Source: a virus (taxonomy: Duplodnaviria > Heunggongvirae > Uroviricota > Caudoviricetes). From it: a stretch of DNA of 17,827 bases. This document shows, in pieces, positions 8,208 to 12,426 of the stretch; positions within the stretch are counted from its first letter, which is position 1, and every line of letters begins with the position of its first letter. A program made the position numbers and the translations under genes. The notes beneath the pieces are model-generated. The model did not search any database. It had not been told where the DNA came from and saw nothing but the letters and a program-made list of their open reading frames with translations. Where the stretch lies: the IMG/VR virus record IMGVR_UViG_2778261533_000006, positions 1-17,827 of that record, one strand, 5' to 3'.

Positions 8208-8421
8208 GCTTCACCTCCGCAGAGGTCAAACGCTAGATGCAAAGAATTGCAGGTGCATTTCTGCATCTGTGAAGGGAGAAGAGAGTTTGGATTGTATGTG
8301 CGCATAAACGTCCCCGTTTAGCGCAGAAGTCACCGGAGTTGTTCAGGCTCCGGTGACATAATTATGCCGTGTTGATTTCCCAAAATCAAAATCGATAGAA
8401 TTGCTCCTTCTTAAAACACTT

Positions 8422-9219
8422 TTACTCTCTGGAAGCTTTTCTTATCTCTCTTGGTGTTATATTAAAACGATTATGAAATCTTTCAGTAAAACGAGAAGGA
8501 CACTTATAACCATTTTCTCTGGCAATCTCGCTTATAGGTTTTACCGTCGTTTGTATAGCAGACAACGCATTATTTAACCTCACATCGTCCAGTATACTTT
8601 GGAAACTTACCCCCTCGCTTGCTAGACGGCGATGTAATGTAGAAACAGAAATGTAGAGATATCGAGCAACCTTGTTTGCTGTCCATTTTGTGCCGGGTTC
8701 GGATAGCAGCAGGTTATAACAACGACTTATCAATGATTGTTTACTATATGATAAAAGTAAATGATTAACATGATTCACTCCTAACGAAAGTAGAACGCCC
8801 ATTGCTAAGTGCTCCTGAATTTTAGTTGAGAAGCCTCGGGAAACAGATGTTTTTAGTTGCTCCCAACAATATATTAACTCAGGATTCTGAGGTAAAAAGA
8901 AACTTGTTTTGTTACGTATTTGATCAGTTACCGTATAAAGTTTTTGGAAACTCTCAATTAAATCAATGGGTAAGTAAAGCATTTCTGCAAGATAAAGCCC
9001 TGCTTCAGGATAATTCTCAATATAAAATTCATAACCACAAGGAAATAATATTATTTGATTATTATCAACAGTTAAAGTATGCGTCTCCCAATTGATAACT
9101 TTCTTTCCCTGACGGATACGACACAAAGCTGGCATAAGAGGCTTAACCCTATGAATCTCATGATGTTTATGCATCCGTATTTCTTCGATCTTTAAGTTAG
9201 TCTTACCTCTTGCCAGCAT
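8422..9219 (-). CDS. ybcM: AraC-family transcriptional regulator (265 aa, YbcM-like)
   Basis: C-terminal AraC HTH (…[33 protein letters not shown]); length and gene order (ybcK-ybcL-ybcM) as in DLP12. Confidence 0.8.
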
Positions 9220-9228
9220 ACTCTCACC

Positions 9229-9780
9229 CTACTTTATCTCATAAACTGGTGTTATCTCAGCGGTTGCGATTTTATTAGCATTAAGCATATAACCAACTAA
9301 CGCTCCGCTGGAGTTAGAATCTACAGGAATCTTTTCAGTTTTTAGAGCCCATACTTTAAACTGGTAATGATGTGGTTTATCTCCTTTAGGAGGACATGCG
9401 CCACCAAACCCAGCATAGCCAAAATCATTTCGGCCTTGAACAGCACCAGTCGGCAGTTTTGTTCCATCACGTCTCCCTGCATCAACGGGCAAATATGTTA
9501 CTGTTGCTGGAATATTAACAACAGTCCAATGCCACCAACCACTGCCTGTAGGTGCATCTGGATCATATACAGTTACGGCAAAGCTTTTGGTACCTTCAGG
9601 AACACCAGACCAGGTTAATGAGGGCGATGTATTACCACCTTCACACCCAAATCCAGAAAAGACATGAGACGTTGTAAGTTGCTCTCCTGTTTTTATTTCA
9701 TTACTAGTGACCTGAAATGCTGCAGCCTGCGCAGAAAATGTTATGAATGCCAATACAGTTGAAACGATAAGTGTTTTCAT
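9229..9780 (-). CDS. ybcL: Periplasmic PEBP/RKIP-family (UPF0098) protein YbcL (183 aa)
   Basis: Signal peptide MKTLIVSTVLAFITFSAQA/AAFQ; PEBP-like motifs (…DPDAP…HHYQFKVWAL…); 9 nt upstream of ybcM in the same orientation. Confidence 0.8.
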   Translation of the reverse strand: MKTLIVSTVLAFITFSAQAAAFQVTSNEIKTGEQLTTSHVFSGFGCEGGNTSPSLTWSGVPEGTKSFAVTVYDPDAPTGSGWWHWTVVNIPATVTYLPVDAGRRDGTKLPTGAVQGRNDFGYAGFGGACPPKGDKPHHYQFKVWALKTEKIPVDSNSSGALVGYMLNANKIATAEITPVYEIK

Positions 9781-9996
9781 AAAAACCTCTTTGTTATGAC
9801 CTATCGTTATTTTATTTGATATTCCTTTATCTCATTATGCATAAAGGCGCAATGTTCATGCAAAAGCAATCACAATTGTACCCCCAACCCAATTATTTGC
9901 CACAATATACACAAAGCACATTGATACTATCTAAAAACTCTGCTTTATTATTAGTAATACCTACGAAAGTCGGTGTTATTTTTTAACCTACCATTC

Positions 9997-10046
9997 AAAA
10001 TACGTGACATACACCATTTTGCTCATAATAATTTGTCACGTATTTT
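9997..10046. repeat. 13-bp inverted repeat pair (aaaatacgtgaca … tgtcacgtatttt) flanking a 24-bp AT-rich spacer
   Basis: Arms at 9997-10009 and 10034-10046 are perfect reverse complements; located between the ybcK stop and the ybcL start. Confidence 0.55.
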
Positions 10047-10244
10047 CAGTATTTGAATCTGCGACCAAGAGTTCTCACCTAACAAATGATTAAGATTGTA
10101 TAGCTCATTTACTACCCCAATACAGCCGTACAAAACTCGCTTGTGGGAGCAAACAAAGTAATTACCCATTAAGTTTCGTCAAAGATAATTAATTCTGTCT
10201 TGCACTTTATCACCATAGCATAACTTAAAATCCGAGATCATTAT

Positions 10245-11771
10245 TTAGAAATAAATCTCACCATCAACCATATATTTGAGAGCACTTATCGCCTGCTGGG
10301 CGGATATTACTTTCATTAAAGGATAGTGTTTAAAAACAATGCCATTCATAAAATAGATATCACAGGTTTTATTATCCGTATTAATTATGATTTTTTCGAA
10401 TGTTTTATAGGCAAGTGTACGGCATAACTCTCGTCCATTTTTACTGGTTAAGTCAATAGCATAAAAATCACTGAATGAATTTACACCTTTACTCTTCAAA
10501 GTTTTCAATGATACCGAAGCCCTTCGTAATTCCTTATCTAATAGTCTTATTTTCTCTGCTATAGCGGTAACTTCAGGCGCGACAGACAATGCAACGATTA
10601 AATTATTAATTTTCATCTGAAGCTCAATAATTTTTAACTCTAAAGTTTCATTAGCATCTTTCTTGTTTTCAACTGGTTGAATTTTGCTACAATTAAAAAG
10701 CAATTCATTAATGATATTATAATCAACCAAATCTCTTTTTATTGATGGCCTGTCACATCGATGTAATCTTCTCATCGGACAAACATAATAGCCATGCAAA
10801 CTTCCAGATACCGCATGAACAATCATGGTATTACCACAAGCCTCACACTTCATAACTGTTCGAAGTAGATTTATTAGCATAGGATTCTTGCTACTATTGC
10901 TAATACCAAAAGGTGCCAACCGAATTTCCTGTACAGCGTAAAACAAATCATCTGATATGACTCTGGGATAATAGCCAGCGATTTCACTTATCCCTTTCCC
11001 TCTTGCACGATATGAAGGTACGCATATACCTATCAGAGCTTTATTCGCTAATAATTTTTCAATTACAGAAGGTCCCCATGCACTTTCTTTTCCTGAGAAA
11101 TTCTTTACAGCATGATCATTTAAATACTTGGCTATTGCATTCAATGAGCGCCTTTCCATCCTGAGTTTAAAAATTAGCTCAATAGTTTTCACCCTGTCGG
11201 GGTCTGGAACAAAAGCCGTTCTTTTGTCATCTAAGGAGAGCCATCTCGGACAAGACGCCGTCATAATCGTACCTGATTCCAGTGCATCCTGCCGTTTTTT
11301 CTTCCATGATAATTTAATCCGACTTGACTTTATCTCGCTTTCTTCATTTGCCCTTTGTGCTATAAGTATGGCTTTTATTAATGAATATGGCTCATTCAAA
11401 GAGTCAATATTATAGACTGTATTGTCGCAAAGAGTTATAACATCAATACCGTGATTCAAAATCAATTTCAGACGTTCAATCGCTTCACCGACTTTTTCTC
11501 TTGAAAGTCTGTCCAGACTTTCAACTAACAATGTAGTTCCTGGCAATATATAACCATGCTCTATAGCATCTAAAAATTCCGAAAAAGCTCCTGATTGTGC
11601 ATGCTTTCCTTTGAATGCACTTAATCCTAAATCTTCATATGTTATGGTATCAAGATAATAATCACTATTTACCTTTAACCATTCAGCAATAAGTCTTCTC
11701 TGTCGGTTTAATGAGTCGCCAGACATCTGACCTGGTGATGAAAATCGCATATATGCTATGGCTTTTTTCAT
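10245..11771 (-). CDS. ybcK: Large serine recombinase (508 aa, YbcK-like)
   Basis: N-terminal resolvase catalytic domain (AYMRFSSPGQ…), Cys-rich zinc-ribbon region (CEACGNTM…YYVCPMRRLHRC), C-terminal extension; AT-rich codon usage distinct from the neighbouring lambda-like genes. Confidence 0.85.
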   Translation of the reverse strand: MKKAIAYMRFSSPGQMSGDSLNRQRRLIAEWLKVNSDYYLDTITYEDLGLSAFKGKHAQSGAFSEFLDAIEHGYILPGTTLLVESLDRLSREKVGEAIERLKLILNHGIDVITLCDNTVYNIDSLNEPYSLIKAILIAQRANEESEIKSSRIKLSWKKKRQDALESGTIMTASCPRWLSLDDKRTAFVPDPDRVKTIELIFKLRMERRSLNAIAKYLNDHAVKNFSGKESAWGPSVIEKLLANKALIGICVPSYRARGKGISEIAGYYPRVISDDLFYAVQEIRLAPFGISNSSKNPMLINLLRTVMKCEACGNTMIVHAVSGSLHGYYVCPMRRLHRCDRPSIKRDLVDYNIINELLFNCSKIQPVENKKDANETLELKIIELQMKINNLIVALSVAPEVTAIAEKIRLLDKELRRASVSLKTLKSKGVNSFSDFYAIDLTSKNGRELCRTLAYKTFEKIIINTDNKTCDIYFMNGIVFKHYPLMKVISAQQAISALKYMVDGEIYF

Positions 11772-11960
11772 GGTGACACCTGCTAACGTATGCTTTTATA
11801 AACCTTAGTGGTGGGATATAATTTTTGTTTAATTTTTATTTAAAAAGACAATTAAGGTCACATTATCTTGAATATACAACAATAATCGTATTGCAATTTT
11901 CTTACGCCATAATCTTGAAAGCACAAAAGAATACATAAAAAATAAAGACATTAACAAAAA

Positions 11961-11996
11961 GCATAAAACGAGGCTCATATAAATATAAGAGCCTCC
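11961..11996 (-). terminator. Putative rho-independent terminator downstream of emrE
   Basis: gaggctc (11970-11976) / gagcctc (11989-11995) stem with a 12-nt AT loop; on the minus strand it is followed by GUUUUAUGC. Confidence 0.4.
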
Positions 11997-12025
11997 ATAT
12001 TTTAGTCGTTTAGAAACAAATTATT

Positions 12026-12359
12026 TTAATGTGGTGTGCTTCGTGACAATAAATTAATAACCAACACACCGGCACAAATCAACATCATGCCTATAATGGC
12101 TGGCAGGTCCAGCCGTTGGCCGAAAAATCCCCATGACAGTAAGCTAATCAGGACAATACCTGACTCCTGACCAGATAGCATAAGCAATCCCTGTAGGAAT
12201 ATAAGCCAGCGTCTGAGCTAATAACCAGAATGATGCACAATAACAAATAATTGTACCAACAGATGGCCATAACCGTGTAAAACCTTCTGAAAACTTCATT
12301 AAGGTTGTACCAATGACCTCTGCAAGTATTGCACCACCAAGATAAATATAAGGGTTCAT
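12026..12359 (-). pseudogene. emrE: Multidrug SMR efflux pump EmrE with a +1 frameshift (single extra nucleotide near nt 12161)
   Basis: Codons 1-65 read MNPYIYLGGAILAEVIGTTLMKFSEGFTRLWPSVGTIICYCASFWLLAQTLAYIPTGIAYAIWSGV; then the frame gives RYCPD-stop, while the +1 frame continues with the expected EmrE C-terminus GIVLISLLSWGFFGQRLDLPAIIGMMLICAGVLIINLLSRSTPH and a stop at 12026-12028. Coding sense reads gtc-A-ggtattgtc. Confidence 0.8.
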
Positions 12360-12426
12360 AGCATATTCTTTCCTGTTCAAACTGGAGAGAATTGTACTAC
12401 AGTTTGAACTCAACTCACCTGTTTCA

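Follow-up and report, generated by a model that had tools for sequence, protein, structure and literature searches.

A probably mosaic cargo slot in a DLP12-type lambdoid prophage, with an intact serine recombinase gene and a perfect inverted repeat in a junction linker

The DNA considered here (the window: positions 1 to 17,827 of the IMG/VR virus record IMGVR_UViG_2778261533_000006, 17,827 nucleotides (nt) in all) is a lambdoid prophage of the DLP12 type at argU, read in reverse, with the gene order appY, pin, porin, quuD, rusA, ybcN'/'ybcO, ylcH, ybcM, ybcL, ybcK, ylcJ, emrE, ren, P, O ... intD. Our subject is the AT-rich block that runs from ybcM to emrE, which is the already annotated DLP12 cargo of Escherichia coli K-12 and whose genes are known, together with a perfect 13-base-pair (bp) inverted repeat lying inside it between ybcL and the serine recombinase gene ybcK. 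The explanation that we favour, with a probability of roughly 0.55, is that the block occupies the passenger-gene (moron) slot of a DLP12-type prophage, co-oriented with the early-right operon; that it was put together from exchangeable modules; that it is nearly silent in the lysogen, where, as published, it is bound by H-NS and subject to Rho termination at the start of ybcK; and that the repeat is a feature of a module junction, which would form a transcript hairpin preceded by an A-tract and followed by a U-tract.

Window 7902-12640 matches E. coli K-12 MG1655 568034-572771 with 99.8% nucleotide identity. Of 5426 complete E. coli genomes, 668 contain the 4.7 kilobases (kb) around the block with at least 80% coverage, and the same stretch is found at 99.8-100% identity in three phage genomes from ECOR strains (PhiR68_2, PhiR34_1 and PhiR70_1). 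A preliminary description of the window, drawn up from the sequence alone, had recognized in ybcM, ybcL, ybcK and emrE an AraC regulator, a secreted PEBP-family protein, a large serine recombinase and a small multidrug resistance (SMR) efflux pump; all four genes are present, each on the minus strand, and Pfam and RefSeq agree with these family assignments. It had also judged by eye that the block is AT-rich and unlike its flanks, which computation bears out. The cargo at 8395-12460 is 36.3% GC as against 47.7% at 6775-8394 and 51.0% at 12461-15500, and GC at third codon positions (GC3) is 0.26-0.29 in ybcM, ybcL and ybcK as against 0.49-0.58 in ren, P and O. A uniform base composition is excluded by these values, which set the cargo apart from the backbone in the manner of morons.

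The limits of the block come from alignments with phages that carry other cargo in the same place (PhiR30_1, PhiR5_1 and PhiR26_1) and with lambda. The shared sequence stops on the right at ~12450-12463 and restarts on the left at ~8392. The block had earlier been delimited as 8208-12426; it extends instead from ~8395 to ~12460, the latter limit falling ~30 nt inside ren, and positions 8208-8394 belong to the backbone (ylcH, a promoter-like element and a hairpin). From the point at which homology ends on the right, it follows that the last ~9-11 codons of ren vary with the cargo. The slot and its edges are as follows:

8395..12460, minus strand: cargo (moron) block of 36.3% GC in the slot between ren and ylcH-ybcN, placed by the homology limits against PhiR30_1, PhiR5_1, PhiR26_1 and lambda.
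12427..12729, minus strand: ren, a Ren-like gene of PHROG 142, in which the codons from 12427 to ~12460 (the last ~9-11) are specific to the cargo type by alignment.
8204..8389, minus strand: backbone edge kept in all cargo variants, made up of a promoter-like TTGATT-17-CATAAT (8389-8361), a 29-bp hairpin GTCACCGGAG..CTCCGGTGAC (8357-8329) and ylcH (8204-8305).

In this slot PhiR30_1 has genes for an acyltransferase and a lipoprotein, PhiR5_1 has Rha and small open reading frames (ORFs), and PhiR26_1 has Rha and PD-lambda-1. The slot of lambda is empty, with ninB starting 73 nt after ren; rather than standing at the place of the lambda nin genes, as had been supposed, the block has been inserted after ren and ahead of the ninB position, and the nin genes are not replaced. 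At least five different contents occur between the same ren and ylcH-ybcN flanks, and, to judge from these sequence comparisons, the slot is a recurrent cargo site. Most of the contents lack a recombinase, which argues that cargo is probably exchanged by homologous recombination through the conserved flanks. The comparison with prophages that lack the insert, proposed in the preliminary description as a search for target-site duplications, did define the two limits; a search of the window for direct repeats on either side of ybcK or of the whole block gave nothing beyond short AT-rich chance matches. As to the signals expected of a moron, a promoter of its own is documented for ybcLM (PMC3946193) and our scan agrees with it, while the terminators are hairpin predictions.

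The 29-bp hairpin of the backbone edge is G+C-rich, lies upstream of ylcH-ybcN and stands at what we take to be the position of the tR2 terminator hairpin in lambda. The record of phage 82 (X92588) labels this element as a putative -35 and -10 and a "possible regulator-binding site"; since the record begins at a HindIII site in the final codons of ybcM, phage 82 has at least the 3' end of that gene.

Between its limits the cargo is, with high probability, a mosaic of exchangeable modules in a hotspot, with more than one acquisition behind it. The earlier suggestion of separate acquisition stands in so far as AT-rich cargo sits in the early-right operon, and fails in treating as one unit what is a mosaic of several modules. 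The first of these would be emrE (broken here)-ylcJ-ybcK, the second a linker of ~220 bp bearing the inverted repeat, and the third the ybcLM operon, which brings along a promoter and a site for autoregulation by YbcM. The phages Perceval, 4A7, Lambda_4C10, 1W, 3W and Turner have emrE-ylcJ-ybcK in common at 96-98% identity, and in them an alpha/beta hydrolase gene or small ORFs replace ybcL-ybcM. When the 3' flanks of ybcK from 112 phage loci (8 clusters) are aligned, two alleles are seen, homologous for ~88 nt past the stop codon and unrelated beyond that point. The DLP12-type flank carries the repeat; the X-type flank does not, and has deletion and IS2-insertion variants. Both types are common among the IMG/VR loci.

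The ybcLM side of the junction also occurs apart from ybcK. About 2,560 E. coli records match just the 155 nt upstream of ybcL, at ~80%, and the one such record that was inspected has the order fliE, then emrE-ybcL-ybcM-porin, then yedK, with 168 bp from emrE to ybcL and no ybcK. This fliE-yedK locus (L009 2642-4501, from E. coli clone D i14) is ~80% identical to the window copy, is free of phage backbone and looks like a prophage remnant that has retained only the passenger genes. Relative to it the window has ~2.07 kb extra (~9936-12010), comprising ylcJ, ybcK and the linker. The pieces of the junction can be set out thus:

9781..9935, minus strand: ybcL upstream region, which moves with ybcLM and is ~80% identical at the fliE-yedK locus lacking ybcK, from sequence comparison.
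9936..10157, no strand assigned: linker of ~220 bp containing the inverted repeat, found only at ybcK-ybcLM joins and lacking both at the fliE-yedK locus and in ybcK phages of the X type.
10158..10244, minus strand: 3' flank of ybcK, homologous but diverged between the DLP12 type and the X type in the alignment of 112 loci.

The linker is present in 675 of the 5426 E. coli genomes, in each of them whole, in single copy and at least 97.9% identical, never split and never itself a junction. Of the phage contigs with ybcK that were examined, about half lack it, and in IMG/VR all 39 of the 39 repeat-bearing contigs have an adjoining ybcK wherever the contig extends that far. A search of plasmids gave as its sole match a chromosome mislabelled as a plasmid. 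By these comparisons the repeat belongs to the junction linker and to neither the ybcK nor the ybcLM module.

The preliminary description had given the repeat exactly:

9997..10046 (arms 9997-10009 and 10034-10046), no strand assigned: perfect 13-bp inverted repeat with a 24-bp spacer, 100% complementary and identical in K-12 (NC_000913.3 570627-570676).

It is the only perfect repeat of at least 13 nt with a spacer of at most 80 in the window, and lies 199 nt past the ybcK stop codon and 94 nt ahead of the ybcLM -35. In first-order Markov simulations a repeat of this kind arises in 2.2% of window-size sequences and in 0.5% of 4-kb blocks; with a chance of ~2% per 17.8 kb, several are therefore to be expected per genome, though locally this one is unusual. 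Its arms, AAAAUA-CGUGACA ... UGUCACG-UAUUUU, place an A-tract and a U-tract around a mixed core. Folded as RNA, the sense (minus) strand forms the 13-bp stem with a further helix of 6 bp inside it (-18.9 kcal/mol, z -3.5), and the plus strand the 13-bp stem alone (-14.9 kcal/mol, z -4.6). Among 11 distinct intergenic alleles, none of the 17 variable sites falls within the 50-bp repeat, where 1.8 would be expected, a difference that is not significant. Further copies of the 13-mer arms in the window, at up to 3 mismatches, are at chance level (11 matches against 7.5 expected), and near 22 relatives of YbcK no comparable dyad is conserved. The annotation of PhiR68_2 has an ORF of 48 amino acids (aa) across the right arm (window 10023-10169), which has no Pfam match and is regarded here as spurious. 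A PhoB chromatin immunoprecipitation peak labelled "(ybcK)" was considered for the repeat and rejected, its inert motif mapping inside ybcK at 10751-10768 and being unrelated.

Published data on K-12 bear on expression of the block. H-NS marks have been recorded over this region (PMC3946193, PMC10294691), a Rho terminator has been placed in the ybcK leader (PMC4150792), and the part of the Term-seq data set that was covered has a bicyclomycin-sensitive 3' end at 568940, 38 nt into ybcK (PMC7815308). These observations are consistent with the proposed near-silence of the block in the lysogen.

Three readings of the repeat had been put forward in the preliminary description, namely a site for the recombinase, an operator for YbcM and a terminator. 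The last is the most plausible of the three, though as a terminator it is weak, having a 24-nt loop and an AT-rich stem. We tentatively regard the repeat as a weak RNA hairpin or terminator-insulator, which would weakly stop or insulate read-through from the unit of emrE and ybcK, or transcription in the antisense direction, before the ybcLM promoter is reached. Its placement between two transcription units agrees with the succession of promoter, gene and hairpin that is usual in morons, and a similar hairpin with a T-run follows emrE. Several observations weigh against this reading or the wider explanation to which it belongs. Judged as an intrinsic terminator the repeat falls short, with its 24-nt loop, 4 G-C pairs out of 13 and a U-run that lies partly in the stem; a terminator scan restricted to loops of 3-8 nt did not call it. 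A search by gene name in the part of the PMC7815308 Term-seq data that was covered gives no 3' end named at the repeat, the 3' end at 568940 being the sole entry for the block. Term-seq signal is low there because ybcK is barely transcribed. The invariance of the repeat is uninformative on selection because the alleles are too similar. The geometry of 13+24+13 = 50 bp near an integrase gene agrees in size and arms with an attP site, and in the fliE-yedK comparison the junctions fit an insertion of ybcK or a deletion alike.

That the repeat has no function, being a chance palindrome or a fossil of the joining of ybcK to ybcLM, is a lesser possibility and on balance unlikely. The rate of such repeats among random 17.8-kb windows (~2%) and the lack of excess conservation speak for it, as do the single arrangement in which the linker is found and the fact that the ybcK and ybcLM modules do without the repeat elsewhere. 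Its local improbability (0.5% for a 4-kb block), a folding far better than that of shuffled sequence on both strands and an inter-unit position typical of functional hairpins count on the other side.

Two further alternatives involve YbcK itself, whose gene had been described as intact, correctly so:

10245..11771, minus strand: ybcK, intact large serine recombinase of 508 aa with the Pfam domains Resolvase, Recombinase and Zn_ribbon_recom; PHROG 95.

The protein has a resolvase catalytic domain (PF00239, E 1e-18) followed in the expected order by a Recombinase domain (PF07508, E 2e-14) and a zinc ribbon (PF13408, E 8e-8), and matches PHROG 95 "integrase" with E 7e-120. Residues R9, S11, R88, R91, C309, C312, C331 and C339 are invariant in an alignment of 18 family members and are all present in YbcK. 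A PDB sequence search with YbcK gave no match at E <= 0.001. The reading frame is intact in 49 of 50 unique alleles, and the ratio of nonsynonymous to synonymous substitution rates (dN/dS) is 0.07-0.08 against alleles at dS 0.13-0.18, an indication of strong purifying selection; on this sequence evidence ybcK is selectively maintained and not a decaying relic. YbcK would be an additional recombinase, because the phages that bear it already have an ordinary tyrosine integrase with an excisionase.

Relatives of YbcK at 41-61% identity occur across Enterobacterales, and members of the family would act as integrases elsewhere. Some lie at or near prophage ends, as in Atlantibacter (beside the tmRNA gene) and Yersinia (after tail fibre genes), and relatives at 59-61% identity stand between P and NinG/Q in the lambdoid prophages L017, L018 and L144, which is the same relative place as in the window. 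In L017 a 2.98-kb segment with genes for the recombinase, a KGG protein and DinI lies between two 86%-identical copies of DUF1367 codons 1-62 (7652-7853 and 10633-10833), and the DUF1367 homology breaks off abruptly, 150 nt short of the recombinase start. L159 (Pantoea alvi) has a segment of ~2.9 kb with residues 77-224 of the P gene product on both sides (8253-8693 and 11164-11757). In both, the broken copy of the target gene adjoins the start of the recombinase. Two further relatives, L150 and L160, have flanking duplications 7-11 kb apart. Such duplications suggest site-specific integration with a gene-restoring arm, by a family that may insert small elements into genes of phages. Duplications on either side of the recombinase are seen neither in the window nor, at the protein level, in L142, the E. 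coli representative.

Against this background ylcJ-ybcK-linker (~9936-12010), or the whole block, might be a small integrative cassette moved by YbcK and nested in the phage, an idea compatible with the explanation that we favour and one that we hold to be quite unlikely here. It draws on the relatives at 59-61% identity in the same nin-region position, on the target-gene duplications around those in L017, L159, L150 and L160, and on the cassette size of the difference from the fliE-yedK locus. However, no such duplication flanks the recombinase in the window or L142, microhomology at the junctions is weak and AT-rich, the direction of the fliE-yedK difference fits insertion or deletion alike, and the many recombinase-free cargo types with the same ren/ylcH limits point to homologous exchange.

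Improbable, too, is the proposal that the 50-bp repeat is an attP-like site for YbcK, with two YbcK subunits on the 13-bp arms and strand exchange in the 24-bp centre, by which the phage, or a ylcJ-ybcK cassette, would be able to integrate without IntD by another route. In its geometry, with symmetric arms and an asymmetric centre, the repeat resembles the attP sites of serine integrases such as phiC31 and Bxb1. The repeat lies only 199 bp from the stop codon of an intact serine integrase gene under purifying selection, within the ~2.07-kb segment absent from the fliE-yedK locus, and relatives of YbcK are found in integrase-like contexts. Co-inheritance speaks against the proposal: ybcK is conserved in the X-type phages (Perceval, Turner and 4A7, with at least 40 IMG/VR loci), whose DNA is unrelated from ~88 nt past its stop codon. 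Moreover, the linker is whole, single-copy and never a junction in all 675 of 675 E. coli genomes having it, the central dinucleotide is a palindromic GC that would confer no polarity, no similar repeat is seen near the 22 family members, and copies of the arms in the window do not exceed chance. A linker that is never split in the 675 genomes, and that about half of the ybcK phage contigs examined do without, is not an obligate YbcK site, and the recombinase-site reading of the preliminary description loses its footing, the repeat being missing from many ybcK phages, never a junction, and without counterpart near the relatives. That the YbcK family moves small "gene-restoring" cassettes, each bringing a substitute for the end of its target gene, into essential or conserved genes of lambdoid phages (P, DUF1367), the ~2.07-kb ylcJ-ybcK-linker being one of them and the perfect 50-bp dyad its intact attP-like site, is a speculation to which we give very low odds; were it true, it would describe a mobile element that parasitises phages instead of bacteria.

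An operator for some DNA-binding regulator of ybcLM or ybcK is likewise very doubtful. In its favour, the repeat is a perfect intergenic dyad 94-143 bp upstream of the ybcLM -35, and distant upstream binding is common among AraC-family activators of AT-rich islands. Yet the fliE-yedK copy does without the repeat while keeping ybcLM, its promoter region and the region of the YbcM site; a dimeric helix-turn-helix protein would seldom have arm centres 37 bp apart, or 3.5 helical turns; and no other transcription factor is reported at the repeat in the literature surveyed. The AraC-family member of the block, YbcM, is encoded next to YbcL, and the features of this operon are:

8422..9219, minus strand: ybcM, AraC-family regulator of 265 aa (Pfam HTH_18, E 9.5e-17, and HTH_AraC; RefSeq).
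9229..9780, minus strand: ybcL, periplasmic protein of the PEBP/RKIP family, 183 aa (PF01161, E 3e-42; annotated in K-12 as "periplasmic protein YbcL").
9848..9881, no strand assigned: YbcM footprint (autoregulation site) over the ybcLM -10, determined by chromatin immunoprecipitation with exonuclease (ChIP-exo; PMC8464067 supplement) and placed by exact match.
9875..9903, minus strand: ybcLM sigma-70 promoter GTGGCA-17-TACAAT, from a consensus scan.

The double helix-turn-helix of YbcM is C-terminal (HTH_18 at residues 185-261), and the PBP domain of YbcL (PF01161) covers residues 44-180. A crystal structure of YbcL has been published. The same promoter hexamers have been given for the ybcK>ybcL spacer, flagged as H-NS-bound (Shimada et al., PMC3946193). 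For YbcM, DNA binding by ChIP-exo and an H2O2 (oxidative-stress) phenotype have been reported (Gao et al., PMC8464067), its strongest site lying at 570015-570048 on NC_000913.2, "upstream of ybcLM", with a signal/noise of 357 (PMC8464067 supplement). The experiment covers one growth condition, paraquat, and there shows one very strong footprint and none at the repeat. The site was carried over to NC_000913.3 with a shift of +777, which we take to reflect an IS1 difference and which agrees with a check on the ucpA site. The sequence so placed (GTACAATTGTGATTGC...) matches window 9848-9881 exactly, 116 bp from the repeat, which lies upstream of it. Because the footprint maps this far away, the repeat is almost certainly not an operator for YbcM, and that suggestion of the preliminary description is hardly credible any longer.

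At the other end of the block, the SMR efflux gene is there as described and is a pseudogene, through an insertion of 1 nt near 12161:

12026..12359, minus strand: emrE (SMR efflux pump), pseudogene here with a 1-nt insertion near 12161, recognized from two overlapping ORFs in different frames, the K-12 alignment and the RefSeq annotation "frameshifted".
11829..11978, minus strand: ylcJ, small hydrophobic ORF of 49 aa (Pfam YlcJ-like, E 2e-35; RefSeq).
11971..11996, minus strand: terminator-like hairpin GAGGCTC-12 nt-GAGCCTC followed by GTTTT, just 3' of emrE, read from the sequence.
12375..12409, no strand assigned: second inverted repeat GTTCAAACTGgAG / CTaCAGTTTGAAC, 13 nt, 92% complementary with a 9-nt spacer, placed after the stop codon of ren and before the ribosome-binding site of emrE.

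Among SMR transporters EmrE serves as the model. In the window its Pfam Multi_Drug_Res match is divided between the two frames, so that the four-helix protein of ~110 aa is not intact and the insertion leads to a truncated product of 72 aa; the same frameshift is annotated in strain PSS-07, and the gene is intact in K-12 and most relatives. The repeat at 12375-12409 might form a hairpin with a regulatory or terminator role for emrE.

Other observations concern the relatives of YbcK and the rest of the window. A perfect 16-bp inverted repeat (ATAAAAATACTGTATA), its copies ~540 bp apart, is present in L017 (9508-9523 and 10065-10080) and L144 (10508-10523 and 11063-11078). It encloses a reverse-oriented gene for the KGG stress protein, a segment missing in L018; one arm lies over the final recombinase codons and the other over a LexA-box-like sequence upstream of dinI. 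In Citrobacter koseri (L014 6145-11573) a relative of YbcK at 50% identity adjoins a 555-aa protein with a faint Shufflon_N match, with paralogous protein-coding segments on both sides of the recombinase and a context like that of a plasmid or an integrative and conjugative element (TraD, MobA). This may be a pilus-tip variation system driven by a serine recombinase. Within the window, a Pin-type small serine invertase of 196 aa is encoded at 3376-3966, beside tail-fibre assembly genes. Scanned with Rfam, the window gave a single match, IS009 (220.9 bits, minus strand) at 4098-4296 within the tail-fibre assembly gene, and none inside the block. PADLOC defence models had no match among YbcK, YbcL, YbcM, YlcJ and Ren. 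At window 7901/7902 a 441-bp deletion (K-12 572771-573213) joins the 5' portion of ybcN to a 3' portion of ybcO with the loss of ninE, and the 137-aa ORF at 7794-8207 is this ybcN/ybcO fusion. Inside the O gene, at 13889-13975, a 19-bp palindromic unit (TTTACCTGATTCGGGTAAA-like) occurs four times; these copies are the expected iterons of a lambda-type replication origin.

To the known genes of this cargo the present analysis adds a precise modular map of the slot, the assignment of the repeat to a junction linker, with exclusion of the YbcM-operator idea, and evidence for the selective maintenance of an orphan serine recombinase in active lambdoid phages equipped with a tyrosine integrase of their own. 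Its main interest lies in that selectively maintained recombinase and the cassette-like contexts of its relatives; for DLP12 itself this is a lead, not a finding. If recombinases of the YbcK type move small cassettes, a proposal based on the relatives and not on the window, they would offer a concrete mechanism for the entry and exit of morons at phage hotspots.

Among known systems the closest is DLP12 of E. coli K-12 itself (emrE-ylcJ-ybcK-ybcL-ybcM, b0543-b0546), whose genes, order and orientation match those of the window. The two differ in that ren, P and O are disrupted or deleted in K-12 and all intact here, whereas the window copy has the frameshifted emrE and the 441-bp deletion that fuses ybcN to ybcO. 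Like the phage morons of the Hendrix group, the block has a lower, distinct GC content, is present or absent among collinear phages, and has its own promoter (that of ybcLM) and an expression or silencing independent of the lytic programme; as a moron it is unusual in carrying a site-specific recombinase, and its terminators are predictions. In its transcript the repeat shares with bidirectional intrinsic terminators the pairable A-rich 5' and U-rich 3' flanks, a hairpin on both strands and a location between units, and differs from them in its 24-nt loop, which is partly structured on the sense strand only, and its 4 G-C pairs. YbcK, for its part, shares with the large serine integrases (phiC31, Bxb1, A118/LI type) the order of Resolvase, Recombinase and zinc ribbon, the serine, the arginines and the four zinc cysteines, and some of its relatives likewise lie at prophage ends or between target duplications. 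Unlike the phages of phiC31-, Bxb1- and A118-type integrases, those that carry YbcK have a tyrosine integrase in the usual place, and the repeat is the sole candidate for an attachment (att) site.

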